Source: a virus
Direction: 5' to 3' (one strand)
Length of the DNA stretch: 44,350 bases
UHGV virus genome: UHGV-0187309
Below the pieces are notes generated by a model. It worked only from the letters and a program-made list of their open reading frames with translations. It made no database searches and was not told the origin of the DNA. Position numbers and translations under genes: made by a program. Positions 3,938 through 43,037 of the stretch are shown here, piece by piece. How positions within the stretch are numbered: the first letter of the stretch is position 1; every line of letters begins with the position of its first letter.

Positions 3938-4097
3938 TACAAAGCTCTCCTTCAAGAATGTATGGGATAGTCAATCCTCAAAACGAACAAATATTCTTAT
4001 TGAAATCTGTGCAACCCTACAAAGTTTATCAAAGACTTTTCAACGCTGAAAACGTTAGAAATGCGAAATTTGGCGTAGGCATTGCATCTTTGATCAC

Positions 4098-4369: not shown

Positions 4370-6298
4370 ATGACTATATATCTTGATAGAGGACCGTTTC
4401 TCACCATTCCCGACAAGCTGCATTCGGGGCAGTACAGAGTGATCCGCAACCCCGACTGGCACGGAGTACTGCCGGAGATCGTGTCCTTCACCGATTTTCT
4501 CAAATGGAATTACACACTGGAGTATGGTCAGTATATCCGCAAATTGCACTACTACCACCAGCTTCCGCTGCCGTGGGTCGTTCCACAGGATGCCGAGATA
4601 GAAACTGTCATCATCGAGGAAGGCAGATATGACCGCATTGATCACAATTCCTTTGATATGTATGTGATATGCGATGTCGTGTTCGAGATGAACGGCTGCC
4701 GGCAGTGCCAGAAGTATATCGTACACGGCTTTTACTGCTCTTACGGCGGTTCAGACTTTCTGTGCGGTGCGGAGCTCTACAATGGTCAGTTTATCCGGCT
4801 GAACAATCCCTTAGATGAGTTTCTGGTTCCCATCCTTTCAAAGAAAGAATTTGCAAGCATTGCACAAGCAATCATCGACCACTACTATTCATACAAATCG
4901 AATTATCCCTGCCGCATCAATACTGCTTCAATTGCAAAGGCAATGGGTCACGATATAAAGTATGCCAGACTGTCAAAAAACGGAAATGTCAAGTCCAAGC
5001 TGATCCTGGACAAGCGGGATACGACCGTCTATGATAAGGAATACAAAGCTGTCAAAATGCGGATCGACAGTCCTACGATCCTTGTGGACGAGTCATTGGA
5101 GGAGGATGAAGCGCAGAACGCCATTATTCATGAGTGCGTTCACGCTTACCTTCACAACCTCTTCTATGAGCTGCAGAGCTACTATCGGAAAATGGTCGGC
5201 AGGAAGATGCCGGAGTTCAATGACTACTTCTATTCCAAGACGCAGCGTAGCTGCCTGAAATGGATGGAAACACAGGCAAATGCCATCCCACGCTTTATTC
5301 AGATGCCGGAGGAGCAGGCATCCGATGTCATCCTGAACTTCTTCGAGCGACTCCCCGGAGAGCCTGACTGGGACGATTACAGAGAACTGATCGACCTTGT
5401 GAAATGGAAGTTCGGAGTATCCCGCAATGCTGCGAAGAAGCGTATCATTGAGCTTGGCTGGCCGGAGGTGCGCGGTGTGTATGTCTACAACACCACAGGA
5501 TATGTTGAGGACTACGATGTAGAGCTAAGATTCCCGCAGGACTATACCTATACACTGTCATTCCGCCAAATCTCTGATGTGTTTGCATCCTGCGAGACCT
5601 TCGCAGAGCTTGTCCGTTCCAAGAAGTTCATCTATCTGGACGGTCATGTTGTGATCAACAGCGACAGGTATATCCGCAAGGAACACGGCTTAGCTATGGG
5701 CTTGACAGAGTATGCTAGACACCACATGGCAGAGTGCTGTCTGGATTTCAAGCGTATCTACGCAGAATTCGACTACAGCTATACCTATGGCGAGCTACAC
5801 AAGGATGACCTGACCGAGATCACGGCCGAAAACCGTTCGTTCAGCGATGAACAGCGAAAGAAGATCCGCATGGCAATGTATGAGATCACAGAAGAAAACT
5901 ATAAACTGACCGTTCCTTCAGATGTCAACGAATTCGGCAAGGCGGTGCGTTTCCATATGGAGAGATGCGGTCTCACCTCGGATCTGGTTGCAGACCGCAG
6001 CGGCATGGGTGTGAACACTGTCAATAAGATGCGCAGTGGCAAGAGAGTGAAGCTCGAAACAGTGCTAGCTTTTTGTGTCGCTTTGGAGCTTGAAGAGTCG
6101 TTCCGCATTGACCTTATGCAGAAAGCGAAGGTTGATTATGATATGAGCAATCCTGCCCATCGGCTCTATGTCACGATCTTTGAGCTGATGCCGAAGGCAA
6201 ATGTCTTTCAGATCAACGATCTGCTGAAGGCAGAAGGCTTTACGCCGTGGACGAGGGACTGCGAGGAAAAGAAGCGGTATGCTAAGAAAAGTATGTAA
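4370..6298 (+). CDS. ImmA/IrrE (M78)-like HExxH metallopeptidase domain fused to a C-terminal XRE-type HTH
   Basis: 642 aa, AGGAGGG RBS. IIHECVHAYLH in the middle. C-terminal HTH FGKAVRFHMERCGLTSDLVADRSGMGVNTVNKMRSGKRVKLETVLAFCVAL. N-terminal ~230 aa unrecognised. Confidence 0.65.
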   Translation: MTIYLDRGPFLTIPDKLHSGQYRVIRNPDWHGVLPEIVSFTDFLKWNYTLEYGQYIRKLHYYHQLPLPWVVPQDAEIETVIIEEGRYDRIDHNSFDMYVICDVVFEMNGCRQCQKYIVHGFYCSYGGSDFLCGAELYNGQFIRLNNPLDEFLVPILSKKEFASIAQAIIDHYYSYKSNYPCRINTASIAKAMGHDIKYARLSKNGNVKSKLILDKRDTTVYDKEYKAVKMRIDSPTILVDESLEEDEAQNAIIHECVHAYLHNLFYELQSYYRKMVGRKMPEFNDYFYSKTQRSCLKWMETQANAIPRFIQMPEEQASDVILNFFERLPGEPDWDDYRELIDLVKWKFGVSRNAAKKRIIELGWPEVRGVYVYNTTGYVEDYDVELRFPQDYTYTLSFRQISDVFASCETFAELVRSKKFIYLDGHVVINSDRYIRKEHGLAMGLTEYARHHMAECCLDFKRIYAEFDYSYTYGELHKDDLTEITAENRSFSDEQRKKIRMAMYEITEENYKLTVPSDVNEFGKAVRFHMERCGLTSDLVADRSGMGVNTVNKMRSGKRVKLETVLAFCVALELEESFRIDLMQKAKVDYDMSNPAHRLYVTIFELMPKANVFQINDLLKAEGFTPWTRDCEEKKRYAKKSM

Positions 6299-20196: not shown

Positions 20197-20374
20197 AAAT
20201 AAATAAAAACAATAGAAAAGATAAGAAGAATAGAGGATTTTCACTGATTTGAACCATTACCCATTTTGCACTGTTTTGAACCTTGCCCGATGCTGTCACT
20301 GACAAAGAGTGTGTAAGCGACAAAGCGTGGCAAGGTCAAAATCCAATAAACAATCATACAGGAGGAACACGAAT

Positions 20375-21469
20375 ATGAGAATCATTACTTCAGAACAGGT
20401 ATCCGCAGGACATCCCGACAAGATCTGTGACCAAATCGCGGATGCCATCGTGACAGACTGCCTTCAGCATGACCGCAGCAGTCGTGTTGCGATAGAGTGT
20501 CTTTTCAAGAACCGCTGTCTTGTGATCGCCGGTGAGCTGACCAGTACCCATGAGCCGGACTACAAGGCTCTGGTGCAGCAGGTGTTCGACCGTATCAACA
20601 ACGGCGGAGCTGAGAACAGCGATGCGGGACTTGACTACAAGCTGGACTTCACCGCCGATGATCTGGACATTGCGATTCTGGTCGATCACCAGAGCAATGA
20701 CATTGCGCTCGGTGTGAATGTCGGCGGTGCAGGAGATCAGGGTATGATGTACGGCTATGCGACCAACGAAACGCCGGAGATGCTCCCGATCCCCTTCGTG
20801 CTGGCTACCAGATTTCTGGAACTGCTGAAAGCCTACCCCTGCCGTATGCTGAAAGCCGATGCAAAGGCACAGGTCAGCTATGACTATGACAGCGGTCGCA
20901 TTACCACCTTCCTCTGCTCGGTGCAGCATACACACGATGTGGATGTTGAGGACTTCAAGCCCATCATCGAAAAGCTGATGGTGAGAACGGCAACCGAATA
21001 CGGGCTGAATACAGACTTTGCAAAGCTCGTCAACCCGACCGGCAGATTTGTCATAGGCAGTTCCTTTGCGGACTGCGGCGTTACCGGACGCAAGCTCGCC
21101 TGCGATACCTATGGCGGTATCGGGCATATCGGCGGCGGTGCAATGTCCGGCAAAGATCCGTCTAAGGTTGACCGCAGCGGCGCATATGCAGCAAGAAAAA
21201 TCGCAAGGGATATCGTCAGCGCCGGATATTCAGACAAGGCAGAGGTGCAGATCGCATACGCCATCGGTGTGGCAGAGCCCGTATCCGTGTATGTAGAGAC
21301 TTTTGGCACGGAGCATCAGGATACGGAGTTCATCAACCAGTATGTTCGTGAGAATTATGACCTCACGCCGAGGGGAATCATCGAAGGGCTGCATCTGCTC
21401 GATGTGGACTATAACGCCATTTCCGCATACGGACACTTCGGAAAACAGAACCTTCCGTGGGAACTATAA
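20375..21469 (+). CDS. metK: S-adenosylmethionine synthetase
   Basis: Start at Met23 of the track ORF (AGGAGGA RBS). ITSEQVSAGHPDKICDQIADAI, GAGDQGMMYGYA, GGGAMSGKDPSKVDRSGAY. Confidence 0.92.
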   Translation: MRIITSEQVSAGHPDKICDQIADAIVTDCLQHDRSSRVAIECLFKNRCLVIAGELTSTHEPDYKALVQQVFDRINNGGAENSDAGLDYKLDFTADDLDIAILVDHQSNDIALGVNVGGAGDQGMMYGYATNETPEMLPIPFVLATRFLELLKAYPCRMLKADAKAQVSYDYDSGRITTFLCSVQHTHDVDVEDFKPIIEKLMVRTATEYGLNTDFAKLVNPTGRFVIGSSFADCGVTGRKLACDTYGGIGHIGGGAMSGKDPSKVDRSGAYAARKIARDIVSAGYSDKAEVQIAYAIGVAEPVSVYVETFGTEHQDTEFINQYVRENYDLTPRGIIEGLHLLDVDYNAISAYGHFGKQNLPWEL

Positions 21470-22932: not shown

Positions 22933-23389
22933 TGCGATACAGCTTGACAGCGGTGCAGAGGTCATGTACGGCAGCGATCAGATCTATGACACCTACCCCT
23001 GCCGCTTTCCGACTGTCGAGTTCCAGCTCATGGCAACGGATGCACTTGCGGAGGTCGCAGACCGCATCCGAATGGAGAAAGGCTATCTCCCGATGCATCC
23101 GAGGGACGGGCGCACGGACGATGTTGACAATGACGGCTGGTACGACTTTTATATCGGGATTAGCAAGCTCCCCAGCGATCATAAGGAATGCAAACTTGAC
23201 AGCAGCATTAGTTTCGTGGTCGTCAATTCAGATTCCGATGACAACGAGGATATGTACAGCATTGACCTGACTGAAACAGAGCAGGCGTATGTGTATGAAA
23301 TACTGAACCGGCAATGCCGGAGATATCACGGGAAGGACTGTGCCACGCTTCTGGCAGAGTCTGAAAAGGAGCTGATGGATACAGCATGA
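22904..23389 (+). CDS. hypothetical protein
   Basis: AGGAGGA RBS before ATG 22904. The stop overlaps the nrdD start (ATGA). Confidence 0.6.
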   Translation: MTLTENFIRDAIQLDSGAEVMYGSDQIYDTYPCRFPTVEFQLMATDALAEVADRIRMEKGYLPMHPRDGRTDDVDNDGWYDFYIGISKLPSDHKECKLDSSISFVVVNSDSDDNEDMYSIDLTETEQAYVYEILNRQCRRYHGKDCATLLAESEKELMDTA

Positions 23390-25527
23390 GGATAATAAAA
23401 CGAAACGGCGCTGAGGTGCCGTATGACTGCGAAAAGATACGAGCCGCAATATCAGCGGCAAATGATGAAGTGCCGGAGAAGATATCAGATACAGTGATCG
23501 GATTCATTGTCGGGAATGTAGAAAAACGCTGTCATGCCCTTGCAAGACCTGTCCATGTCGAAGAAGTCCAGGACATGGTTCTTGATGAACTGGACAAGGC
23601 CGAGGCTTACAAACTTGCACGGCACTACAGTGAGTACCGCCTGTGGCATGAGCAGCAGCGCCGTATGAACACCACCGACGGCAAGATTCTCAGTCTGCTG
23701 GAACGCAACAACGAGGAGGCAAAGCAGGAGAACGCCAACAAGAACCCCATCATCAACAGCACGCTCCGTGACTATATGGCGGGAGAAGTCAGTCGGGATA
23801 TATGTCGGCGCTTCCTGTTTCCGGAGGATGTGATCGCCGCCCATGATGACGGCATCATTCATGTGCATGACCTCGACTACATCGCAGAGCCGATGCACAA
23901 TTGCTGTCTGGTGAATCTGGAGGATATGCTTCAAAACGGCACAGTGGTATCCGGTACTATGATTGAGAAGCCGCACAGCTTTTCGACTGCCTGCAATATC
24001 GCAACGCAGATCATTGCACAGGTGGCATCAAATCAGTACGGCGGACAGACGGTATCTCTGGCACATCTTGCGCCTTTCGTGGATATCAGCCGACAGAAAA
24101 TTCGTGCCGAGGTGTTCGAGGATGTGAACTGCGACTGCGGTGCAAAGCTGTCTGAAAAAGAACTGGACTACATCGTAGAAAAGCGCGTGCGACGGGAAGT
24201 CAAGCGAGGCGTACAAACGATCCAGTATCAGATCAACACGCTCCTGACAACCAACGGTCAGACACCGTTCGTGACGGTATTCATGTATCTGGACGAGGCA
24301 CCGGAGGGACAGACCAGAGATGACCTTGCACTCATTATCGAGGAAACGCTGCTTCAGCGTATCGAGGGCGTGAAAAACGAGAAGGGCGTGTGGATCACAC
24401 CGGCATTCCCGAAGCTGATCTATGTTCTCGATGAGGACAACATTCAGCCCGGTTCCAAGTATTACTACCTCACCGAGCTTGCGGCGAAGTGTACCGCAAA
24501 GCGTATGGTTCCCGACTATATTTCCGCAAAGGTGATGAAACGTCTGAAGGGTGATGTGTATGCCTGCATGGGCTGCCGGTCATTCCTGACACCTTCTGCC
24601 GACCACAAATACTACGGCAGATTCAATCAGGGAGTCGTCACGATCAACCTTGTGGATGTTGCGTGTAGCGCAGGCGGAGACGAAGATAAATTCTGGCAGC
24701 TTCTTGATGAACGCTGCGAACTGTGCCGCAAGGCTCTGATGTGCAGGCATGAACGTCTGAAAGGTACGCCGTCCGATGTTGCACCGATCCTCTGGCAGTA
24801 TGGCGCACTTGCGAGACTGAAGAACGGTGAGGTCATTGACAATTTGCTGTATAACAACTACAGCACGATCTCCCTCGGCTATGCCGGCATCGCGGAAATG
24901 ACCTACCGCATGACAGGCTGTTCGCATACAGAGTCGGAGGGAAAATCCTTCGCCATTTCAGTGATGCATTTTCTGAACGATAAGTGCAGCAAATGGAGAG
25001 CTGAAAGCAATATCTCGTTCTCGCTATACGGCACGCCGATGGAATCTGTGACCTACAAATTTGCAAAGTGTCTGCAAAGGCGGCATGGTATTATTCCGCA
25101 CGTCACGGACAGGAGCTACATTACCAACAGCTATCATGTCCATGTGACAGAGCCGATCGACGCCTTCAGCAAGTTGTCCTTTGAAGCGGAGTTTCAGGAG
25201 CTTTCTCCCGGCGGTGCGATTTCGTATGTAGAAGTGCCGAACCTTCAGAACAACATTCCTGCGGTTCTGGCACTCATGAAACACATTTACGAAACGATTT
25301 TATATGCTGAACTCAACACTAAGTCCGACTACTGTCAGGCTTGTGGCTATGACGGGGAGATGCAGATCGTGGAAGAGGACGGCAAGCTGATCTGGGAATG
25401 CCCGAACTGCGGCAACCGTGACCAGCGGACAATGAATGTCTGCCGCCGCACCTGCGGATATCTCGGAACGCAGTTCTGGAATCAAGGGCGCACACAGGAG
25501 ATCGCAGAAAGGGTGATGCACCTGTGA
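23386..25527 (+). CDS. nrdD: anaerobic ribonucleoside-triphosphate reductase
   Basis: N-terminal ATP-cone (IIKRNGAEVPYDCEKI). C-terminal Zn site CQACGY...CPNCGN. Glycyl-radical tail RRTCGYLG. Confidence 0.93.
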   Translation: MRIIKRNGAEVPYDCEKIRAAISAANDEVPEKISDTVIGFIVGNVEKRCHALARPVHVEEVQDMVLDELDKAEAYKLARHYSEYRLWHEQQRRMNTTDGKILSLLERNNEEAKQENANKNPIINSTLRDYMAGEVSRDICRRFLFPEDVIAAHDDGIIHVHDLDYIAEPMHNCCLVNLEDMLQNGTVVSGTMIEKPHSFSTACNIATQIIAQVASNQYGGQTVSLAHLAPFVDISRQKIRAEVFEDVNCDCGAKLSEKELDYIVEKRVRREVKRGVQTIQYQINTLLTTNGQTPFVTVFMYLDEAPEGQTRDDLALIIEETLLQRIEGVKNEKGVWITPAFPKLIYVLDEDNIQPGSKYYYLTELAAKCTAKRMVPDYISAKVMKRLKGDVYACMGCRSFLTPSADHKYYGRFNQGVVTINLVDVACSAGGDEDKFWQLLDERCELCRKALMCRHERLKGTPSDVAPILWQYGALARLKNGEVIDNLLYNNYSTISLGYAGIAEMTYRMTGCSHTESEGKSFAISVMHFLNDKCSKWRAESNISFSLYGTPMESVTYKFAKCLQRRHGIIPHVTDRSYITNSYHVHVTEPIDAFSKLSFEAEFQELSPGGAISYVEVPNLQNNIPAVLALMKHIYETILYAELNTKSDYCQACGYDGEMQIVEEDGKLIWECPNCGNRDQRTMNVCRRTCGYLGTQFWNQGRTQEIAERVMHL

Positions 25528-25991: not shown

Positions 25992-26305
25992 GAGCCAGAC
26001 TGAAACCGCCGGGAGATGCTGTCCGCTGCGATGCCTGCGGATGTGCCTTTGTGCCGGAGCCGAAAATGCAGCGTGAGGGAGAGATCGAATACAGCTTCCT
26101 CAACTGTGATTACTGTGGCAAAGCGTATATCGTGTCTGTGACCGATGCCGCACTCCGCCGGAGCATCCGCAAGTACCGGACGCTTGCCGAAAAGCTGAAG
26201 GGCAAGCCGTTGAGTGAAGATACGCTCCGTGAGGTCACGGCGCTGAAGGATGCGAACACAAAAAGAGCCGCAGAGCTGCGGCAGATGTATATTCGGGAGG
26301 GATGA
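25988..26305 (+). CDS. hypothetical zinc-ribbon protein
   Basis: CDACGC...17 aa...CDYCGK. ATGA overlap with nrdG. Confidence 0.6.
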   Translation: MRARLKPPGDAVRCDACGCAFVPEPKMQREGEIEYSFLNCDYCGKAYIVSVTDAALRRSIRKYRTLAEKLKGKPLSEDTLREVTALKDANTKRAAELRQMYIREG

Positions 26306-26306
26306 G

Positions 26307-27578
26307 ATGAAAACAGCAGAACTTCGCATGATCCCTGTCTCGGAGCTGAAGCCTGCGGAATACAATCCGCGTAAAAAGCTGAAGCCCGGCGACAAGGAAT
26401 ACGAGAAGATCAAAAACAGCATCGAGGAATTCGGCTTTGCCGACCCGCTTGTTGTCAACGCCGACATGACGATCATCGGCGGACACCAGAGACTGACCGT
26501 AGCAACGGCGCTCGGTTACACGGAAGTTCCGTGTGCGGTGGTGGACATCGACAAAGTCCGTGAGAAGGCACTGAACATTGCGCTGAATAAGATCACGGGT
26601 GCATGGGACGAGAATCTTCTGGCGGAACTTCTCGAAGATATCCAGAGCAGCGATTTCGACCTCGGCAAGACCGGCTTTGATCCGCCGGAGATCGAGCAGC
26701 TTTTCAATGCCGTTCATGACAAGCAGGTCAGTGAGGACAGCTTCGATGTGGAGGAGGAGCTGCAAAAGCCGACATTCTCGCAGCCGGGAGATATCTGGAT
26801 TCTCGGCAGGCACAAAGTCATCTGCGGCGATAGTACAATCGCAGAGACATACACCAAGCTGATGGACGGGCAGAAGGCAAACCTCGTCCTGACCGATCCT
26901 CCGTACAATGTGGATGTTGAGGAAACTGCCGGAAAGATCATGAATGACAACATGAGCGACAGTGATTTCTATAGCTTCCTGCTTTCCGCTTACAAGTGTA
27001 TGTATGACAGTCTTGCCGATGACGGCAGCATTTATGTATGGCACGCCGACACCGAGGGGCTGAACTTCCGCAGAGCGTTCAAGGAGGCAGGCTTCCAGCT
27101 TTCTGGCTGCTGTATCTGGAAGAAGAATTCTCTGGTGCTGGGCAGAAGCCCCTATCAGTGGATTCATGAGCCGTGTCTCTTCGGGTGGAAACAGAAGGGC
27201 AAGCATCAGTGGTATGCCGACCGCAAGCAGACAACTGTATGGGAGTATGACAAGCCCAAGAGCAGCCCCGATCATCCGACCACAAAGCCTATCCCGCTGA
27301 TGGCGTACCCGATCAAGAACAGCACCATGACCAACGGCATCGTTCTCGATCCGTTCCTCGGCAGCGGTTCGACACTGATCGCCTGTTGCGAGACAGACCG
27401 TGTTTGTCGGGGCATCGAGCTTGATCCGAAGTTCGTGGATGTCATTGTCAAGAGGTATCTGGCATGGTGCCAAGAGAAGCAGACCGCCGAGGTCGCATAT
27501 GTCATTCGTGATGGACAGAAGCTCACCTATGAGGAGGCTATCGCAGCGATGCCGCAGGGCGGTGATGCAGTTGAGTGA
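26307..27578 (+). CDS. ParB-like nuclease domain fused to N6-adenine/N4-cytosine DNA methyltransferase
   Basis: ParB-N motifs IPVSELKPAEYNPRK and IIGGHQRL. MTase motif IV LVLTDPPYNV. Motif I VLDPFLGSGSTLIA. Confidence 0.88.
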   Translation: MKTAELRMIPVSELKPAEYNPRKKLKPGDKEYEKIKNSIEEFGFADPLVVNADMTIIGGHQRLTVATALGYTEVPCAVVDIDKVREKALNIALNKITGAWDENLLAELLEDIQSSDFDLGKTGFDPPEIEQLFNAVHDKQVSEDSFDVEEELQKPTFSQPGDIWILGRHKVICGDSTIAETYTKLMDGQKANLVLTDPPYNVDVEETAGKIMNDNMSDSDFYSFLLSAYKCMYDSLADDGSIYVWHADTEGLNFRRAFKEAGFQLSGCCIWKKNSLVLGRSPYQWIHEPCLFGWKQKGKHQWYADRKQTTVWEYDKPKSSPDHPTTKPIPLMAYPIKNSTMTNGIVLDPFLGSGSTLIACCETDRVCRGIELDPKFVDVIVKRYLAWCQEKQTAEVAYVIRDGQKLTYEEAIAAMPQGGDAVE

Positions 27579-28350
27579 TGTGAAGTGTGTATTATATCAC
27601 GACAACTTCCAAAACTTCAAAGGCTACAGCATCCCGAAAGCGCAGCTCGTCATCGCTGACATCCCGTACAACATCGGCGGCGATTTTTACGCAAGCCGCC
27701 CCGACTGGTATGTGGACGGTGACAATCAGAACGGCGAAAGCAGCAAAGCACATAAGGCGGCATTCCATACAGATTACAGCTTTAACATTGCTGAATACTT
27801 CGCCTTCTGCAACCGACTGCTCAAAAAAGAGCCGCCAAAAGGTGAAAAGGATGCGCCGTGCATGATCGTGTTCTGTGCCTTTCAGCAGATACCGGAAGTC
27901 ATCCGGCAGGCGGAGAAATACGGCTTCAAGAAGTATCAGTTTTTGTGTTTTATGAAGAATTACAGTCCGCAGGTGTTGAAGGCGAACATGAGGATCGTGG
28001 GCGCAACGGAATACGCTCTGGTGCTGTACCGGGGCAAGCTGCCGAAATTCCGAAACACGGATGAGAATGGCAAACACCACATGATCTTCGACCATTTTGA
28101 CTGGATGCGGGACGGCAAGGATATCCCGAAGATACATCCTTCGCAGAAGCCGGTAAATCTCCTGAAACGGCTGATCGGGATATTTACCGACGAGGGTGAT
28201 GTGGTCATCGATCCCTGCGCCGGTTCCGGCTCAACGCTGCGTGCGGCGAGGGAGCTTGGCAGACACAGCTACGGCTTTGAAGTCAGCCGGGATTTTTATA
28301 ATAAAGCCTGTGAACTGATGCTTGGGGAGGATACCGATGACGAAGCATGA
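27565..28350 (+). CDS. DNA methyltransferase (beta-class N6A/N4C type)
   Basis: Motif IV variant IADIPYNIG, then motif I VIDPCAGSGSTLRAA. Start uncertain (ATG 27565, TTG 27571 or GTG 27580). Confidence 0.78.
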   Translation: MQLSDVKCVLYHDNFQNFKGYSIPKAQLVIADIPYNIGGDFYASRPDWYVDGDNQNGESSKAHKAAFHTDYSFNIAEYFAFCNRLLKKEPPKGEKDAPCMIVFCAFQQIPEVIRQAEKYGFKKYQFLCFMKNYSPQVLKANMRIVGATEYALVLYRGKLPKFRNTDENGKHHMIFDHFDWMRDGKDIPKIHPSQKPVNLLKRLIGIFTDEGDVVIDPCAGSGSTLRAARELGRHSYGFEVSRDFYNKACELMLGEDTDDEA

Positions 28351-28582
28351 ATGTGCGGTCGTGACCGCTTACACAGAGATTTCTATGCTCAAGGGCGACG
28401 ATCTGAAATATCTGTATGACTATCTTTCCGGCTTTATCGGCAGACCGGTGTATACACACGAGATTTCTGCTGTGGTGATGGCTTACAGAGAGCAGATCAG
28501 GGAGGACTTCCTCGATCTGTGCAGGAACGCAAAGGAGGCGGATGATGGATCAGAAACACTTGACTCTCGGCAGCTTATTTGA
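28337..28582 (+). CDS. hypothetical protein
   Basis: GGGGAGGA RBS. 81 aa. Overlaps both neighbouring MTase genes. Confidence 0.5.
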   Translation: MTKHECAVVTAYTEISMLKGDDLKYLYDYLSGFIGRPVYTHEISAVVMAYREQIREDFLDLCRNAKEADDGSETLDSRQLI

Positions 28583-31145
28583 CGGCTCCGGTGGCTTTCC
28601 GCTTGGCGGCATCCTTGCAGGGATCGAGCCGAAGTGGAGCAGCGAAATTGAACCATTCCCGGTGCTTGTCACGCACAAGCGGCTGCCGCAGGTGAAGCAC
28701 TACGGCGATGTATCCAAACTGAACGGAGCAGAGCTTCCGCCGGTGGATATCATCACCTTCGGCAGCCCGTGTCAGGATCTGTCCATAGCGGGCAAGCGCG
28801 CCGGAATCCATGACGGTGATCGGTCAAACCTGTTCTTTCAGGCGATCCGCATCATCAAAGAAATGAGGGATGCAACAAATGGACGATATCCGCGATACTG
28901 CGTCTGGGAAAATGTCCCCGGCGCTTTCTCATCCAACGGAGGAAACGACTTCAAGGCTGTCCTCGAAGCAGTTATCGGAGTTAAAGAAAAAGGGATCGAG
29001 GTGCCTGCGCCTGAAAATCACAGATGGGCAAAATCAGACGTATATCTGGGAGACGGATGGAGCGTGGCTTACCGAGTTTTCGATGCTCAATACTGGGGTG
29101 TCCCCCAACGCAGAGCAAGAATCTACCTTGTCGCAGATCTTGCTGGTGGAAGTGCCGGAGAAGTATTATTTAAGTCCGAAGGCGTGTCTGGGTATACTCC
29201 GCAGGGCTTCCGTGCGTGGCAAGGAGCTGCCGGAGGTGCTGAAGAAGGCACTGGAGAGACAGGCGGGCGGTCTGACGCTGGAGGTGGAACCCTCTGCCTG
29301 AATACACAGGGCAACAGCGGCGTCGGCATCACCGAGAACAAGGCTCTCGCACTGGTCGCACAGGATCATGGCAATCATCCGGCTGTGCTTCATGCGGTCG
29401 GTATCGACGGCTACAATGCTGCGGTCACCGATGATACGGCAGCAACGCTTGGTGTGAACTGCGGAATGTCCACAGGCAGAAACGGTGTCCTGCAGGCGGC
29501 GGGATTTTCCACAGAACACAGTGCAAAAGCAAGGAGCATCGGCTACGAGGAAGAGGTATCTCCCACACTTCGAGCCGGTGTTGTTCCGGCGGCAATGGAG
29601 TTATATGAAAATCATGGGCAGGACAGCAGATTCAGAGGACCTTTGGATGTAGCACAGCCTGTGACTGCTACCTACGGCATGGGCGGCAACAATCAGCCGC
29701 TTGTGGTAGAGAACAATCCCACGGACGGCAGAGCGAAGATCAATCCCGACGGTGTGTTTCAGACGCTCTGCGGACGAGCCGGAACAGGCGGAAACAACAC
29801 GCCGCTTGTTGCTGAACCGGTCACGCTGAAAATCAGGTCGGGATGTGAGGGCGGTGGCAAGGGTGCTTTATGGCAGACCGACAAGTCTGCTACGCTCGGC
29901 ACAAACAATGACCAGAGTGTATTTGTTCCGTTCGTCAAGGGAACACGTCCGCACTCTGCTGAAGAGGGGCAAACATGGAAACCCGGCGAGGTCGCCAATA
30001 CACTGAATACCTTTGATGTCGGTGAAAGTCGCTGCAATGAACTTGTGGTGGAAGAGCCGCAGATCAGGGCTTTCGGTGTATGCAGCAAGCATTCCAATGC
30101 GATGATGTCCGACAATCCGCACAGCGGATTCTATGAGGCGACCACAAGCAGAACGCTCGACCAAAGTGGTGGAAATTCTGTGACATCGAATCAGGGCGGC
30201 ATCTGCGTGGTAGCACCTGCGCCTGAAACCTTCGATGTGCGTTTCACATCAGACGGTACAAAAAACGCTCGTGGGCATTGCTATCCGACAGACATCTCCC
30301 GATGCCTTGATACGAGCGAGGGATCGCCAGACTCGAATCACGGCGGTGTCGCTGTGGTGGCTCTTGAACCGGGGGCTGCATCACGTGTCGGCGGTCATGT
30401 ATACAGTGACGGCAAAAGCGGTACGCTTCGAGCCAATGCCGGCGATAATCAGCAGGCTGTTGTGGTCGCCGAGCCGGAGACCTATGCTCTGCAAGGCTCG
30501 ATGATCGGTCGTGCCGACAAGAACGGTCCGCAGGGTGATGGCATCAACGAGGATGTGTGCTTTACGCTCAATACATCGGACAGACACGCCATTGCCGCAC
30601 CTGATCCGTCCTTCACAATTTCCCGCGACAACCATTTTGCCGTTTCGGAGGATGTATCCGTTACAGCCGTGGCAAGAGGCCCTGCGGCAGTCGCAGCACC
30701 GGCAGACCACTATTGCACCAGTAAGAATTCGCATCATACGGTCGCCGCCCATGAGCAGGCAAACACGCTGGTCGCTTCCGACTGGAAGGATCCGCCGCTT
30801 GTGAACGACCTTCCGAATGACGAGCCAGTATATATCGTTCGCCGCTTGACTCCGGTTGAGTGCGCCAGATTGCAGGGATTCCCTGACTGGTGGTGTGCCG
30901 ACCTTGCAATTACTGATCCTTCCGATGAGGAGATCGCCTTCTGGACGGAGGTCTGGGAGACATGGCGGCAGGTCACAAATCCCAAGGGCAAGCCGAAAAC
31001 GGAAAAGCAGATCCGCAAATGGCTGGCTGATCCGTACACGGATTCAGCGGAGTACAAGCTGTGGGGCAACGGTGTCTCAGAGCCGGTCGTATACTTCGTG
31101 CTTTCCGGCATCGCATGGGCAGCGCAGAGAGATACACAAAAGTGA
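28542..31145 (+). CDS. dcm: DNA (cytosine-5)-methyltransferase with ~570-aa repetitive variable (TRD) region
   Basis: Motif I LFDGSGGF, IV FGSPCQDLS, VI CVWENVPG, VIII QRRARIYLV, IX RRLTPVECARLQGFP, X LWGNGVSEPV. About 1.7 kb lies between motifs VIII and IX. Confidence 0.9.
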   Translation: MMDQKHLTLGSLFDGSGGFPLGGILAGIEPKWSSEIEPFPVLVTHKRLPQVKHYGDVSKLNGAELPPVDIITFGSPCQDLSIAGKRAGIHDGDRSNLFFQAIRIIKEMRDATNGRYPRYCVWENVPGAFSSNGGNDFKAVLEAVIGVKEKGIEVPAPENHRWAKSDVYLGDGWSVAYRVFDAQYWGVPQRRARIYLVADLAGGSAGEVLFKSEGVSGYTPQGFRAWQGAAGGAEEGTGETGGRSDAGGGTLCLNTQGNSGVGITENKALALVAQDHGNHPAVLHAVGIDGYNAAVTDDTAATLGVNCGMSTGRNGVLQAAGFSTEHSAKARSIGYEEEVSPTLRAGVVPAAMELYENHGQDSRFRGPLDVAQPVTATYGMGGNNQPLVVENNPTDGRAKINPDGVFQTLCGRAGTGGNNTPLVAEPVTLKIRSGCEGGGKGALWQTDKSATLGTNNDQSVFVPFVKGTRPHSAEEGQTWKPGEVANTLNTFDVGESRCNELVVEEPQIRAFGVCSKHSNAMMSDNPHSGFYEATTSRTLDQSGGNSVTSNQGGICVVAPAPETFDVRFTSDGTKNARGHCYPTDISRCLDTSEGSPDSNHGGVAVVALEPGAASRVGGHVYSDGKSGTLRANAGDNQQAVVVAEPETYALQGSMIGRADKNGPQGDGINEDVCFTLNTSDRHAIAAPDPSFTISRDNHFAVSEDVSVTAVARGPAAVAAPADHYCTSKNSHHTVAAHEQANTLVASDWKDPPLVNDLPNDEPVYIVRRLTPVECARLQGFPDWWCADLAITDPSDEEIAFWTEVWETWRQVTNPKGKPKTEKQIRKWLADPYTDSAEYKLWGNGVSEPVVYFVLSGIAWAAQRDTQK

Positions 31146-33427: not shown

Positions 33428-34372
33428 ATGACTGAGAAAACCGCACAGCAGATCAACAGAATGAAGGAGCAGACCATCGGGGTTGAGATCGAGATGAACA
33501 ACATCACCCGCAAGGCTGCCGCAAAGCTCGCCGCCGACTTCTTCGGCACGAACCGCTACGAGGACACGGCCTGCCGCAACGGCTACGAAACCTACAGTGC
33601 TTGGGACGCACAGGGACGCGAGTGGAAATTCCAGAAGGACGTCAGCATCGCAGGCCCCGACAGCGAAAAGTGCGAACTGGTCACACCGATCCTGCACTAC
33701 GCAGACATCGAAACCCTGCAGGAGCTTGTGAGAAGGCTCAGAAAGGCAGGAGCGCGCAGTGATTACACGCGGGGATGTGGAGTCCACTGCCACATTGGAG
33801 CCCAGGGACACACACCGCAGAGCCTCAGAAACCTCGCAAACCTTATGGCAAGCCACGAAACCCTGATCGCCGAGGCAATCAGAGTAGACCAGAGCAGAAT
33901 GCACCGCTACTGCAGAACAGTTGACCCGAGATTCCTTGAACAGCTCAACCGCAAAAAGCCCACCACGATGGCACAGCTTGCGGACATCTGGTACGGCGCA
34001 CAGGGCTGCGAATACGGCAGAACCCACCACTACAACGACAGCCGCTATCACATGCTCAACCTCCACGCTACCTTCACCAAAGGCACGGTCGAGTTCAGAC
34101 TTTTCCAGTTCGCACCGCCTTCCAACGGCAAGCAGAACGGGCTCCACGCAGGCAAGCTCAAGAGCTACATTCAGCTCTGCCTCGCAATGAGCCAGATGGC
34201 AAAGGACCTGCGGAGCGCCAGCCCCAAGGAACAGCAGAAGGAAAACAAAAAGTTCGCCATGCGGACTTGGCTGATGAGAATGGGATTCATCGGGGATGAA
34301 TTCGCAACGGCGAGAGAGGTCCTCACTGAGAACCTTACGGGCGACAACAGCTTCCGCTTCGGCAGATCTTAA
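33428..34372 (+). CDS. putative amidoligase (Amidoligase_2, glutamine-synthetase-like fold)
   Basis: QTIGVEIEMNNITR...GREWKFQKDVSI...CELVTPIL...GCGVHCHIG...TVEFRLFQ. Pattern recalled from the Amidoligase_2 family. Confidence 0.75.
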   Translation: MTEKTAQQINRMKEQTIGVEIEMNNITRKAAAKLAADFFGTNRYEDTACRNGYETYSAWDAQGREWKFQKDVSIAGPDSEKCELVTPILHYADIETLQELVRRLRKAGARSDYTRGCGVHCHIGAQGHTPQSLRNLANLMASHETLIAEAIRVDQSRMHRYCRTVDPRFLEQLNRKKPTTMAQLADIWYGAQGCEYGRTHHYNDSRYHMLNLHATFTKGTVEFRLFQFAPPSNGKQNGLHAGKLKSYIQLCLAMSQMAKDLRSASPKEQQKENKKFAMRTWLMRMGFIGDEFATAREVLTENLTGDNSFRFGRS

Positions 34373-34705: not shown

Positions 34706-35173
34706 ATGAACAAGAAAAAATACTACATAGCCTACGGCAGCAACCTCAACATCCGCCAGATGCGATTCCGCTGCTCAGGCGCAAAGCCCATCGGCATTTC
34801 CGCGATTCCTGACTACGAACTGCTCTTCAAGGGCAGCAAGACGGGAGCGTACCTCACCATCGAGCCGAAGGACGGCGGGCTTGTTCCGGTCGCCGTGTGG
34901 GAAGTGACAGCCGACGATGAGAAGCACCTCGACATCTACGAGGGCTACCCGAACTTCTACTACAAGAAGGAAGTCCGCCTGCCAATCAGGCTGGCAAACG
35001 GCAAGACCAAAAAGGTCACGGCATTTGTCTACATCATGCACGAGGAGCGTGAGATTGCGATCCCGTCAATGACCTACATCCGCACCTGCGAGGAAGGCTA
35101 CCGCAACTTCGGCTTCGACACCAAGTTCCTTGATGCCGCCTACGAGATCAGCGCAAAGGAGGTACAGCGATGA
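34706..35173 (+). CDS. gamma-glutamylcyclotransferase (GGCT/AIG2-like)
   Basis: YYIAYGSNLNIRQMRFRC...LVPVAVWEVTADDEKHLDIYEGYPNFYYK. Confidence 0.82.
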   Translation: MNKKKYYIAYGSNLNIRQMRFRCSGAKPIGISAIPDYELLFKGSKTGAYLTIEPKDGGLVPVAVWEVTADDEKHLDIYEGYPNFYYKKEVRLPIRLANGKTKKVTAFVYIMHEEREIAIPSMTYIRTCEEGYRNFGFDTKFLDAAYEISAKEVQR

Positions 35174-39897: not shown

Positions 39898-40371
39898 ATG
39901 GCTCAGAGAGGCAGAAAACCGACGCCGACAGCAATCAAGGAACTGGAAGGCAATCCCGGAAAACGACCGCTGAATGATGCAGAGCCGAAGCCGGAACGCA
40001 AGGCACCGCCCTGTCCGAAGTGGCTGGAGCCCGAAGCAAAAAAGGAATGGCGCAGGCTGTCAAAGCAACTGGAGCAGATTGGTGTGCTGACCGAGGTCGA
40101 TCAGGCGGCATTCGCATCCTACTGTCAGGCATACGCACGATGGAAAGAAGCCGAGGAATTCATGACCCAGCACGGCACGATCGTAAAAACAAAATCAGGT
40201 TACTGGCAGCAGGTTCCGCAGGTATCCATTGCGCAAACTTATCTGAAGATCATGAACAAGATCGCAGAGCAGTTTGGCCTGACCCCGGCGGCAAGAAGCC
40301 GTATCACTGCCGGCGCAGATATGAAAAACGCTGCCGTTGACGATATGGATGAACTTCTCGGAGGTGGCTGA
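39898..40371 (+). CDS. terS: terminase small subunit (P27 family)
   Basis: MAQRGRKPTPTAIKELEGNPGKRPLN...PKWLEPEAKKEWRRL...FGLTPAARSRI. AAGGAGTG RBS. Confidence 0.85.
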   Translation: MAQRGRKPTPTAIKELEGNPGKRPLNDAEPKPERKAPPCPKWLEPEAKKEWRRLSKQLEQIGVLTEVDQAAFASYCQAYARWKEAEEFMTQHGTIVKTKSGYWQQVPQVSIAQTYLKIMNKIAEQFGLTPAARSRITAGADMKNAAVDDMDELLGGG

Positions 40372-43037
40372 TGGCGAGAACGGCAAAGGCAAGAGAAAGA
40401 CCTGCCAACTATCCGAAACTGAAGGATTATAAACCGACACGCTTTATGCTGCCGGAATCGCACTACGATGCGGCAAAGGCTGACCGAGCTGTGCGGTTCA
40501 TCGAGAATCTCTGCCATACCAAAGGACGCTGGGCAGGCAAACCGTTCTGGCTGCTTCCGTGGCAGGAACAGATCATCCGGGATATTTTCGGCATCGTCAA
40601 AGAGGACGATATGCGGCAATTTCGTACCGCCTATGTCGAAATTCCAAAGAAAAATGGGAAGCAGCTTGCACTGGATACACCGATCCCGACTCCGCAGGGA
40701 TTCACCAATATGGGAGATCTGAAGGTCGGAGATACAGTATTCGATGAAAACGGCATTCCGTGCCATGTGGTTGCGAAAAGTCCTGTGGATGATACAGAGC
40801 AAGCCTACAAGCTGACCTTCAAGGACGGCACCTCGATCATTGCCGGGGAAAGGCATCTGTGGAACTGTCAGTATATTTACGGCAAACGCAAGGATGTTCT
40901 CTGGACGACCGGCGAGATCTATCGCAGGACAACGGAATACAGACAGCGTTTTTCCGACAGACCACAGACAAAGCGGGATTCCCTTATCCGAATTCCGGTG
41001 TGCGGTGTCCTTCAGACAGAAGCGGCAGTTTTACCGATTGATCCGTATCTGTACGGCTACTGGCTCGGAAACGGTAATGTGACCATGCCGGAGATCACTG
41101 TTCGGACGGAGGATGTCGAGGATATCATCTCGAATATTCCGTATAAGGTACACAACCGTTATCCGCAGAAATGCGGCGGCAGTGAGATCATAAAGTACAA
41201 TGAACTGAAAGCAGTACTACTTGACAGCTTCCGTGAAAAGAAGATCCGACCAGAATATCTGAGGGCATCCGCAGAGCAGAGATGGGCATTACTGCAAGGG
41301 CTTATGGATTCGGACGGCTGTATCGGCGAACGCAAAGGGCAAAGTGTGTATGTCACAACGCTGCGAGAGCTGGCGCTTTCCGTCAGAGAACTGCTGTGGT
41401 CACTCGGCATCAAAAATGCAGTGAAATGTGAGCCTTCTACACGGCATGGGTGGCCGACCGGCGAGATTTTGTATATCGTCCGTTTTACAACCTTTGATGG
41501 CCAACCGACATCAAGGCTTAAACGCAAAAATACACGCACACAGGCGCGGTTAAAGGAAACTCGCTCCTGTTTTCATTATCTGCTGGATATTCAACCTGTA
41601 AATCATCCTGTAAAAATGCAGTGCATTCAGGTGGACAGTCCGAGTCACCAATATCTCGCAGGACCGTCATTTGTGCCTACGCACAACAGTGAGCTTGCAG
41701 CGGCAATTGCACTGTATCTGCTCTACGCCGACAACGAGCCGTCTGCTGAGGTCTACGGCGCTGCTGCTGATCGTGGGCAGGCATCCATTGTATTCGATGT
41801 CGCCAAAAGAATGGTTGAGATGACACCGGCACTTCTGAAACGCTCAAAAATCATGGCGGCGACAAAGCGTCTGGTGAATTACAGTAATGTTGGCTTTTAT
41901 CAGGTGCTTTCAGCGGAAGTCGGTACAAAGCACGGATTGAATGTATCCGGTCTGGTTTTGGATGAACTTCATGCCCAACCGAACCGCAGCCTTGTGGATG
42001 TTCTCACAAAGGGTTCCGGTGATGCCCGTACTCAGCCGCTGTACTTCCTGATCACAACCGCCGGAACGGATCGCAACAGCATCTGCTACGAGTATCACAC
42101 GAAAGCAAAAGATATTCTGGACGGCAGGCGCATTGATCCGTCCTTCTATCCTGTGATCTACGGCTTGAACGATGATGACGACTGGAACGCAGAGGAGTCA
42201 TGGTATAAGGCAAATCCCTCGCTCGGATACACTATCGCCATCGACCGAGTCCGCGATGCTCACCGGGAAGCCCTTACAAATCCCGCTGAAGAAAATGTAT
42301 TCCGTCAGCTGAGGCTTGACCAGTGGGTAGGCAGTGCGGTGGCATGGATTCCGGAGCATATCTACGACAGGGGCAATCTTCCGATCGACCTCGAAAAGCT
42401 CCGGGGACGGGAGTGCTACGCAGGTCTTGACCTATCCAGCACATCGGATATCACGGCATTTGTGCTGGTGTTCCCTCCGCTGCATGACGGCGAGAAATAC
42501 ATCGTTGTCCCGCACTTCTGGCTGCCGAGAGAAACGCTCGATTTGCGAGTACGGCGAGACCATGTTCCCTACGATGTATGGGAGCGCATGGGATTATTTC
42601 ATATCACCGAGGGCAATGTGGTCGATTACAATTTCGTGCGGAAAACGATCAACGAGCTGCACACGATGTACAACATCAAGGAAATTGCTGCCGACCGCTG
42701 GAATGCCACACAGCTTATCACAGACCTTGAGGGAGACGGATTTACCGTTGTTCCGATGGGTATGGGCTTCAAGGATATGTCCCCGCCGATGAAGGAACTG
42801 TACAAGCTCATACTCGAGGGGCAGTTTATCCACGGCGGCAACCCTGTACTCCGCTGGATGGCAGGAAATGTGGTCGCTGAAATTGATGCAGCGGAGAACA
42901 TCAAACCAAGTAAAAAGAAAAGTACAGAAAAGATTGACGGTATCGTGGCATGGATCATGGCACTTGACCGCTGCATCCGCCACGAAATGCAGGGCAGTGT
43001 CTATGACGAACCCGGCCACGATCTTGTGGTCATCTGA
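40371..43037 (+). CDS. terL: terminase large subunit (Terminase_1 type) interrupted by an intein in the Walker A loop
   Basis: Exteins join as EIPKKNGK|SELAAAIALYLLYADNEPSAEVYGAAADRGQA. Downstream LVLDELHA (Walker B) and a nuclease domain. 546 aa without the insert. Confidence 0.92.
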   Translation: MARTAKARERPANYPKLKDYKPTRFMLPESHYDAAKADRAVRFIENLCHTKGRWAGKPFWLLPWQEQIIRDIFGIVKEDDMRQFRTAYVEIPKKNGKQLALDTPIPTPQGFTNMGDLKVGDTVFDENGIPCHVVAKSPVDDTEQAYKLTFKDGTSIIAGERHLWNCQYIYGKRKDVLWTTGEIYRRTTEYRQRFSDRPQTKRDSLIRIPVCGVLQTEAAVLPIDPYLYGYWLGNGNVTMPEITVRTEDVEDIISNIPYKVHNRYPQKCGGSEIIKYNELKAVLLDSFREKKIRPEYLRASAEQRWALLQGLMDSDGCIGERKGQSVYVTTLRELALSVRELLWSLGIKNAVKCEPSTRHGWPTGEILYIVRFTTFDGQPTSRLKRKNTRTQARLKETRSCFHYLLDIQPVNHPVKMQCIQVDSPSHQYLAGPSFVPTHNSELAAAIALYLLYADNEPSAEVYGAAADRGQASIVFDVAKRMVEMTPALLKRSKIMAATKRLVNYSNVGFYQVLSAEVGTKHGLNVSGLVLDELHAQPNRSLVDVLTKGSGDARTQPLYFLITTAGTDRNSICYEYHTKAKDILDGRRIDPSFYPVIYGLNDDDDWNAEESWYKANPSLGYTIAIDRVRDAHREALTNPAEENVFRQLRLDQWVGSAVAWIPEHIYDRGNLPIDLEKLRGRECYAGLDLSSTSDITAFVLVFPPLHDGEKYIVVPHFWLPRETLDLRVRRDHVPYDVWERMGLFHITEGNVVDYNFVRKTINELHTMYNIKEIAADRWNATQLITDLEGDGFTVVPMGMGFKDMSPPMKELYKLILEGQFIHGGNPVLRWMAGNVVAEIDAAENIKPSKKKSTEKIDGIVAWIMALDRCIRHEMQGSVYDEPGHDLVVI
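40662..41687 (+). mobile_element. 342-aa intein (apparent class 3, Gln at position 1) with LAGLIDADG endonuclease domain
   Basis: QLALDTPIPTPQGF... block A. GERHLW (Trp two residues after the block B His). LYGYWLGNGN and LLQGLMDSDGCIG (LAGLIDADG pair). MQCIQVDSPSHQYLAG (block F Cys). VPTHN|S at the C-terminal junction. Confidence 0.78.

Follow-up and report, generated by a model that had tools for sequence, protein, structure and literature searches.

A probable multispecific C5-cytosine methyltransferase with a tandem array of around 13 target-recognition cassettes in the phage genome UHGV-0187309

The viral genome UHGV-0187309 (44,350 nucleotides (nt); the whole of this stretch of DNA was analysed and is referred to below as the window) encodes a C5-cytosine methyltransferase (C5-MTase) of 867 amino acids (aa), in which a long region separates the conserved motifs VIII and IX. 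We consider it likely that this protein is a multispecific enzyme of the type found in the phages SPR and phi3T, in which the array of target-recognition domains (TRDs) has been expanded to around 13 cassettes. At the level of sequence it displays every characteristic of the SPR/phi3T multispecific class, and it would probably mark many DNA sites and thereby evade many bacterial restriction enzymes. An earlier note on this DNA had proposed an SPR/phi3T-type enzyme with around a dozen tandem TRDs. With respect to architecture and evolution, the proposal is supported by the homology of the modules to known TRDs, by insertions and deletions (indels) of whole modules, by the shuffling of modules between relatives and by purifying selection.

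The C5-MTase and its catalytic core

The complete open reading frame (ORF; 28542..31145, + strand, like all parts of the gene given below) is uninterrupted, and its product is the same as protein P0001, which lacks only the first Met and is found on three metagenome contigs. The identification as a C5-MTase, already made in the earlier note, is borne out by the Pfam family PF00145 (E=3e-37, 129.1 bits against a curated cut-off of 22), by TIGR00675 (dcm; E=9e-35, 120.9 bits against a curated cut-off of 100.65) and by the phmmer alignment to M.HhaI, the motifs I-VI, VIII and IX of which are covered by aa 10-141, 175-198 and 766-784, respectively. Motif I (LFDGSGGF, aa 12-19), motif IV (GSPCQDLS, aa 74-81, with the catalytic Cys77), motif VI (WENVPG, aa 122-127), motif VIII (QRRARIYLV, aa 189-197), motif IX (RRLTPVECARLQGFP, aa 767-781, with RRLTPVE at 767-773) and motif X (LWGNGVS, aa 840-846) follow each other in the canonical order, by which a circularly permuted C5-MTase is ruled out for the window enzyme. 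The N-terminal catalytic core with motifs I-VIII (28542..29132) is defined by the M.HhaI alignment, the AF2 model (pLDDT 70-95) and Foldseek, in which the AF2 core model matched M.HhaI, M.HaeIII and DNMT1 with a probability of 1.0. The C-terminal part of the core (30837..31145), recognized by phmmer and AF2, consists of motif IX, a helical insert of around 55 aa and motif X. Between the two core parts lie a Gly-rich spacer, which extends from motif VIII to the first module (aa 198-239, 29133..29258), and the array of modules itself. The gap between motifs VIII and IX measures 569 aa, in agreement with the ~570 aa reported in the earlier note, and the region that was delimited there (29135-30835) equals aa 199-765 and is thus located exactly between the two motifs.

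Two peculiarities were observed among the relatives of the enzyme. A permuted motif order was seen only in the large relatives P0305, P0318, P0332, P0353 and P0359, where motifs IV (PCQ), VI (ENV) and VIII, the TRD array and motifs IX and X apparently come first and the C-terminus holds motifs I (MASLFDGIGGFP) and II (SEIEEFPIAV); some of these proteins carry extra TRD-like modules beyond the C-terminal motifs I/II. In addition, intein-like insertions (Hint/homing-endonuclease) split the catalytic motifs in many family members, namely P0037, P0249, P0266, P0272, P0305, P0318, P0322 and P0345. They are inserted in motif VI (VWENVC...HNCGAFSS) or motif IV (SPCF...HNCQDLS), the insertion in P0037 corresponds to Pfam PF13403 and PF05204, and the window copy is devoid of any.

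Thirteen modules between motifs VIII and IX

The dipeptide Thr-Leu (T-L) is found 11 times within the insert, compared to an expectation of 2.2 from the composition; 0 of 20,000 shuffled sequences reached 11. All 21 peptides that were quoted in the earlier note are present and its count of 11 T-L dipeptides is correct, but taken as a count of modules it falls short: a parse of aa 240-765, guided by the positions of the T-L dipeptides, the hydrophobic strands and the boundaries of the indels described below, resulted in 13 contiguous and non-overlapping modules of 33-56 aa each (M1-M13). Ten of the 13 contain a canonical T-L, and the remaining three show the variants V-T-A (M4), C-L (M9) and T-I (M12). 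The T-L positions of 11 of the 13 modules share one column in a MAFFT alignment. One of the T-L peptides counted in the earlier note, PVTLKIR (aa 428), had to be given up, as it is not conserved in the relatives and forms the start of M6, which has a T-L of its own at position 451.

Within the single sequence the repetition is weak, and it becomes clear only through module-wise statistics and comparative data. The self dot-plot that had been suggested as a check revealed repetition for two pairs of modules, M4/M5 and M8/M9, and not elsewhere, these being the only pairs to exceed the null expectation (the maximum of the shuffled sequences or its 95th percentile). When all modules were compared against each other (Smith-Waterman, 300 shuffles each), the highest z-scores were obtained for M4-M5 (9.2) and M8-M9 (7.9), followed by M11-M12 (4.2), M6-M9 (3.7), M6-M10 (3.3), M4-M12 (3.2) and M2-M6 (3.0). 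The mean z over the 78 module pairs was 0.73, against -0.16 for pieces of the catalytic core of equal size, none of which scored above 3. At the level of the DNA, the repeats within the gene are short (at most 34 nt), 61-86% identical and located at the strands that end the modules; there is no sign of a recent duplication among them. Recombination between these repeats was considered as the origin of the indel in M4 and rejected, since the repeats do not explain it. Given the weak signal in the dot-plot and the limited length and identity of the DNA repeats, the modules are old and highly diverged. A Pfam search found no domain within the insert.

Relationship to the TRDs of classical multispecific enzymes

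The insert was compared to the classical multispecific enzymes of SPR (K02124), rho11s (X05242), H2 (M72412) and phi3T (KY030782), for which the TRD boundaries follow from our own segmentation and are approximate. The labels H (GGCC), E (CCWGG), F (GCNGC) and M (CCGG) that we presume for these TRDs follow papers of the Trautner laboratory in combination with the pattern of segment sharing, and we take them as leads and not as results. The alignment to the SPR/phi3T group, another check proposed in the earlier note, indeed uncovered homology, in the form of a colinear alignment with H2, of z-scores up to 8.0 and of profile matches located on T[LV] cores. More explicitly, BLASTP aligned aa 582-695 of the window protein colinearly with aa 330-443 of H2, thereby placing three consecutive modules against three consecutive H2 TRDs and pairing FTLNTSDRHAIAA of the window protein with FTVNTIDRHGVAI of H2. 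In BLASTP, aa 379-492 were furthermore aligned with H2 297-427. Seven of the 13 modules (M4, M5, M7, M10, M11, M12 and M13) reached a z above 3 against a classical TRD, and the others (M1, M2, M3, M6, M8 and M9) were linked to other window modules only, or weakly. These values should be viewed next to those of the classical TRDs of differing specificity, which are as diverged mutually as the window modules are, the SPR-specific TRD having a z below 0.5 against all others.

A profile constructed from the window modules alone matched the T[LV] cores in SPR (2), rho11s (3), H2 (3) and phi3T (2); shuffled sequences and the monospecific neighbour enzyme of phi3T gave essentially no match. The reverse profile, made from eight classical TRDs, yielded only two positive matches in the insert, which is too weak when taken alone, yet better than the shuffled sequences. 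A phmmer search with the insert against all PDB sequences gave no match at E-values up to 10, and none of the modules could be linked by sequence to a TRD of known structure. The distance between motifs VIII and IX, 569 aa in the window enzyme, ranges from 185 to 278 aa in phi3T, SPR, rho11s and H2 and is 99 aa in the monospecific phi3T_149. The composition of the array (hydrophobic residues 0.23; G/S/T/N/A 0.45) is close to that of the SPR array (0.24 and 0.42, respectively). A transfer of specificities from the classical TRDs to the modules was entertained as a lead only, considering how the labels were obtained and that the phage DNA is almost devoid of GGCC and CCWGG (see below).

Gain, loss and reordering of cassettes

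Indels were analyzed in 16 homologs sharing 85-97% identity with the window protein. The segments that were missing in one or more of these homologs are aa 285-318 (34 aa, TL302; M2), which is missing in five homologs, aa 352-386 (35 aa; M4) in nine, aa 426-461 (36 aa, TL451; M6) in two (P0119/P0120), aa 462-504 (43 aa, TL487; M7) in nine, aa 607-643 (37 aa, TL628; M10) in three and aa 689-721 (33 aa, TI692; M12) in five, while P0096 contains an additional block of 43 aa with an SNTL core of its own. All of these blocks have both of their boundaries directly past a hydrophobic strand. Among more distantly related proteins the modules are found again at 50-90% identity, with match edges that coincide with the module boundaries, and in a changed order, such as M4-M9-M8-M11-M13-M13-M2 in P0266, M10-M6-M11-M8-M7-M5 in P0289 and M8-M2-M10-M9-M6-M1-M4-M11 in P0377. 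The clustering of T[LIV]-anchored sequence windows from 391 relatives produced 40 types that occur in at least 10 proteins, some of them off-register duplicates, and we estimate that the family may hold around 25-30 genuine module types, many of which are not represented in the window. The natural variation indicates that the modules behave as autonomous cassettes.

Selection on the gene was assessed from the ratio of non-synonymous to synonymous substitution rates (dN/dS; Nei-Gojobori, mean of ten pairs), using the DNA of four close homologs. The ratio was 0.104 for the array and 0.125 for the catalytic core, and for single modules it varied between 0.005 (M3) and 0.25 (M4). Unlike the remainder of the gene, aa 201-239 of the Gly-rich spacer (29142-29258) showed a dN/dS of around 1.7, a value that is based on small counts (8 synonymous versus 41 non-synonymous differences over the pairs). 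Among the close homologs the mean dS amounted to 0.83 for the array and to no more than 0.51 for the core, which fits a mosaic history with cassettes acquired through recombination from phages that are less closely related. Judged by the dN/dS ratios, the array appears functional and not decaying, and every module is under purifying selection.

The individual modules can be described as follows. M1 (aa 240-284, TL250; 29259..29393) represents the weakest assignment, with a best z of 2.7 to the H TRD of SPR, an occurrence in 103 of the 391 relatives and a dN/dS of 0.23. It is followed by M2 (29394..29495), one of the present/absent cassettes, with a dN/dS of 0.03, and by M3 (aa 319-351, SPTL342; 29496..29594), which is among the most widespread (294/391 relatives) and most conserved modules. 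M4 (aa 352-390, PVTATYGMGGNNQPLVVE; 29595..29711), of which 35 aa constitute a present/absent cassette, is a paralog of M5 and has a z of 3.8 to the F TRD of phi3T; M5 itself (aa 391-425, TL408; 29712..29816) resembles the F TRD of phi3T/H2 (z 6.0). Within M6 (29817..29924), TL451 is taken as the functional dipeptide and TL428 as incidental. M7 (29925..30053; dN/dS 0.045) resembles the H TRD of SPR (z 5.4). The most widespread module of the family is M8 (aa 505-560, RTL538; 30054..30221), which was recovered in 333 of the 391 relatives and is a paralog of M9 (aa 561-608; 30222..30365), the module that was aligned with an F-type TRD of H2 in the colinear BLAST alignment. M10 (aa 609-645; 30366..30476; dN/dS 0.057) resembles the E TRD of SPR (z 4.3), and M11 (aa 646-688, FTLNTSDRHAIAA; 30477..30605) is a clear homolog of the H TRD that is common to SPR, phi3T, rho11s and H2 (FTVNTIDRHGVA; z 8.0). 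M12 (30606..30704; dN/dS 0.048), besides its similarity to M11, has a z of 3.1 to the H TRD of SPR. Finally, M13 (aa 722-765, NTLVASDWKD; 30705..30836) resembles the SPR-specific TRD (SHTLSASDWRG; z 4.7) and runs into motif IX.

Predicted structure and palindrome avoidance

The AF2 model, which was based on an alignment of 48 sequences, had a pLDDT of 70-95 in the core and of around 20-25 over aa 214-769; a mini-enzyme composed of aa 1-239 and 722-867, predicted from the single sequence, had a mean pLDDT of 34. We do not interpret the low values over the array as the mark of a junk linker, because the shuffling of modules scrambles the alignment, because purifying selection is strong and because the composition equals that of the SPR array. 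The cassettes may be flexible until they are docked on the core and the DNA.

Several palindromes are depleted from the phage DNA (1-44350), with observed/expected (O/E) ratios of 0.13 for GGCC (23 observed versus 172 expected), 0.13 for CCWGG, 0.20 for GGWCC, 0.17 for CTAG, 0.31 for ACGT and 0.40 for CGCG. The 6-bp palindromes CCATGG, GGCGCC, GTGCAC, GCATGC, GTCGAC and TTCGAA, each expected 6-11 times, are absent, and no depletion was observed for GCNGC, CCSGG, AGCT, TCGA and GATC. The depletion of GGCC, GGWCC, ACGT, CGCG and CTAG extends to the whole lineage (loci L013-L092), and the frequencies of CCWGG, GATC and CATG vary at least 20-fold between related phages. Such depletion may result from restriction avoidance, from a host signature or from decay through the deamination of 5-methylcytosine (m5C). 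The extreme avoidance may reflect a heavy restriction pressure and as such would fit an anti-restriction enzyme; its strength also implies that methylation is not the sole protection of the phage.

Proposed mode of action and alternative explanations

Basically, every cassette follows the same plan: a lead-in that varies, then the T-[L/I] core, a loop rich in Gly and Asn and, finally, a short strand of hydrophobic residues. A single catalytic core (motifs I-VIII together with IX-X) would serve all of the cassettes. One cassette at a time may pair with the core on the DNA while the others loop out, and the docked cassette would read one short target and position the cytosine for flipping and for methyl transfer from S-adenosylmethionine (SAM). 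During lytic growth the phage DNA would become methylated at many short motifs and, together with the activity of two N6/N4 MTases and a SAM synthetase encoded nearby, this could shield the progeny from many Type II restriction systems of the host. Recombination among related phages would add, drop and reshuffle cassettes and in that way re-tune the repertoire of protection. Most cassettes are presumably active and differ in specificity. A wider version of the proposal holds that the phages of gut Clostridia share a combinatorial anti-restriction system, in which a pool of at least 25-30 cassettes, including those of the permuted and intein-containing variants, is reassorted on one core, with 6 to around 18 cassettes per enzyme, most of them active, and at least ten unrelated motifs recognized per protein. 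We give this version a chance somewhat short of even. If true, it would entail a structural mode that has not been seen before: a single catalytic domain would sample, in a dynamic manner, a large number of alternative and largely unfolded recognition modules.

A number of observations weigh against a multispecific enzyme with many active cassettes. M1 and M3 are related weakly to the other modules (z below 3), three modules (M4, M9 and M12) are without a canonical T-L, and the low pLDDT over the array lends no structural support and allows for intrinsic disorder. Moreover, GGCC and CCWGG, the targets that one would expect from the H-like and E-like modules, belong to the most strongly depleted motifs, which means that either the specificities are not transferable or that there is little left for those modules to protect. 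The presence of modules was compared with the O/E of motifs in 47 related loci and, with p below the permutation threshold, no clean signal emerged; since one module tracks many motifs, and mostly in the negative direction, the association was discarded as evidence on account of clade/host confounding. Finally, the classical enzymes reportedly carry conserved but inactive 'pseudo' TRDs (Lange et al. 1991, Nature), and for that reason the conservation of a module is no proof of its activity.

An alternative would be that the architecture is indeed that of a multi-TRD enzyme, in which most of the cassettes are pseudo-TRDs or spacers, at most three motifs are methylated and the remainder acts as a reservoir for recombination. 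Pseudo-TRDs are a known property of enzymes of the rho11s/H2 type, and the segment labelled E is common to SPR, rho11s and H2, yet only SPR was reported to methylate CCWGG. The lack of a canonical T-L in the three modules mentioned would fit this explanation, as would the dN/dS of M1 and M4 (0.23-0.25), the highest of the array. We nevertheless consider it unlikely, given that all 13 modules experience purifying selection that is similar to or stronger than that on the core and that modules remain intact at 50-90% identity, and at new positions, in very distant relatives; one would expect idle cassettes to have degenerated or disappeared, as their deletion is easy.

Another explanation takes the array as a collective, flexible DNA binder of low specificity, so that the enzyme would be a relaxed, near non-specific cytosine methylase, analogous to M.EcoGII. 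The Gly/Asn-rich composition with low hydrophobicity, the lack of a stable fold in the AF2 model and the lack of a PDB match for the insert are all in line with such a role, but the SPR array, which is known for its discrete specificities, has an equal composition. Considering in addition that modules are individually homologous to specific TRDs, that indels and shuffling of cassettes suit discrete functions and that a near-total methylation of cytosines would make the avoidance of C-containing palindromes unnecessary, a relaxed enzyme seems improbable. A further explanation would be that a disordered linker without function, or an insertion of unrelated origin, interrupts an otherwise monospecific MTase, and that the T-L dipeptides are accidental. 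A pLDDT of around 20 across the insert and the absence of a Pfam domain would be expected in that case, but the enrichment of T-L (0/20,000 shuffles), the dN/dS of 0.10, the 3,178 clusters of homologous sequences (see below) and the homology to classical TRDs make this hardly credible. The multispecific enzyme with an expanded array of cassettes thus is the explanation that we prefer.

Genomic context and distribution of the family

The C5-MTase gene is the last of a methylation cluster that is syntenic in the relatives (26250-28582, + strand, followed by the ORF). The cluster starts with a fusion of ParB_N and an N6/N4 DNA MTase (26250..27578, +) and continues with a second N6/N4 DNA MTase (27400..28350, +; the true start is probably located downstream of 27400) and DUF7736. 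Relatives often carry a PAPS-reductase-like gene and a gene of unknown function (211 aa) inside the cluster, and both are lacking in the window. No restriction endonuclease adjoins the C5-MTase, the neighbours being MTases, DUF7736, an Arc-like ORF and YAcAr. A SAM synthetase (MetK; 20309..21469, +), located ~7 kb upstream of the C5-MTase, likely supplies the methyl donor, and its presence beside three DNA MTases suggests that the phage boosts the methyl-donor supply during replication. NrdD, the anaerobic ribonucleotide reductase, is encoded at 23386-25527 (+).

The window also encodes TerL, a family-A DNA polymerase (PolA), a D5-type primase-helicase and a CI-like repressor. The repressor (HTH_3 and Peptidase_S24; 3065-3955, -) adjoins a protein with IrrE/M78-peptidase and HTH domains (4370-6298, +), a pair that points to a temperate phage with a switch of the SOS type. 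TerL (40371-43037, +; 888 aa) has a LAGLIDADG_3 match at aa 303-369 and its ATPase match starts at aa 442 (profile position 37), which suggests an intein or a homing-endonuclease insertion. Downstream of the MTase an Amidoligase_2 (33428-34372, +) and a gamma-glutamyl cyclotransferase (GGACT/AIG2; 34706-35173, +) were found, and the same pair is annotated at the equivalent position in genomes of the 'Ca. Heliusvirales'. The window is part of a temperate gut phage that resembles the members of this lineage.

The 'Ca. Heliusvirales' are a widespread and ancient lineage of intestinal phages, 67% of whose genomes contain a C5-MTase and 58.9% a SAM synthetase (PMC11283538). Around twenty complete 'Ca. 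Heliusvirales' genomes of human faecal origin encode full-length relatives of the window enzyme (40-50% identity), annotated as 'hypothetical protein' or 'DNA methyltransferase'. With the insert alone as query, 3,178 clusters (50% identity) were matched, 1,261 of them at E<=1e-10, typically in 2-9 separate stretches, and at least 590 loci of the family are present in IMG/VR. The distance between motifs VIII and IX in 39 complete and diverse representatives has a median of 378 aa, with six proteins at 565 aa or more and a maximum of 792 aa; within the 240 closest relatives, that of the window enzyme is the longest among the 149 in which both motifs could be located. The window enzyme therefore ranks among the larger members of a family that is very abundant, and it is not unique.

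Significance

Since the 1980s the multispecific C5-MTases have figured in textbooks as a curiosity, with 2-5 specificities and a record limited to a handful of Bacillus phages. In the searchable literature we came across no account of gut phages with large TRD arrays, and a restriction-modification review from 2025 cites arrayed TRDs from Bacillus phages only (PMC12707154). The principle as such is old, and the scale, abundance and cassette dynamics appear to be undescribed: a known principle appears scaled up three- to four-fold and is extremely common. If the cassettes are active, this could account for the way in which these temperate phages cope with the dense restriction-modification of the gut Firmicutes. 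The family would then also constitute a natural library of dozens of compact (~40 aa) and portable DNA-recognition modules for the engineering of methylation specificity, and could be of use in pre-methylating DNA for the transformation of recalcitrant gut bacteria. Active cassettes would likewise bring a structural problem into sharper focus, namely the use of many alternative TRDs by a single catalytic domain, and would imply that m5C motifs found in gut metagenomes may trace to single phage enzymes and not to many host MTases.

Comparison with known systems

The closest known counterparts are the enzymes of SPR, phi3T, rho11s and H2, temperate Bacillus phages of the SPbeta group. Like the window enzyme, these are phage-encoded orphan C5-MTases with one catalytic core and with a region of contiguous TRDs between motifs VIII and IX, of ~40-55 aa each and centred on T-[L/I/V]; they are presumed to protect the phage's own DNA from several restriction systems (PMC12707154). 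The cores of the window enzyme and the classical multispecific enzymes are ~30% identical. The earlier note had anticipated that the window enzyme would exceed the classical ones in the number of TRDs, and this turned out to be the case, with 13 modules versus 2-4 and a span between motifs VIII and IX that is 2-3 times the classical one. Further differences are the charged helical spacer of ~84 aa that precedes the first TRD in SPR and is lacking in the window enzyme, the cassette order, which is heavily shuffled in the family of the window enzyme, and the phage lineage, the window belonging with the 'Ca. Heliusvirales' of gut Clostridia (Oscillospiraceae/Ruminococcus) and not with the Bacillus phages.

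M.HhaI and M.HaeIII share the catalytic fold and the motifs with the window enzyme, and their single TRD with a T-L core is likewise situated between motifs VIII and IX. It is one folded domain of ~80-100 aa, whereas the window enzyme has 13 far shorter units without a predicted stable fold. M.(phi)BssHII (Sethmann et al. 1999, EMBO J; cited in PMC8936443) is reportedly a prophage-borne multispecific C5-MTase with five specificities, which exceeds the number in the SPR group, and the TRDs of which, according to the title of that paper, are found at two separated locations. In the window enzyme all modules stand in a single unbroken array between motifs VIII and IX, a comparison that is made by description only. 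By analogy only, the Type I HsdS subunits can be mentioned, in which specificity is likewise diversified by recombining modules on a constant catalytic machinery (PMC12707154). HsdS differs in its unrelated fold and chemistry (adenine N6 methylation, separate subunit) and in the simultaneous use of two TRDs for the recognition of a bipartite site, in place of many alternative TRDs that would act singly.

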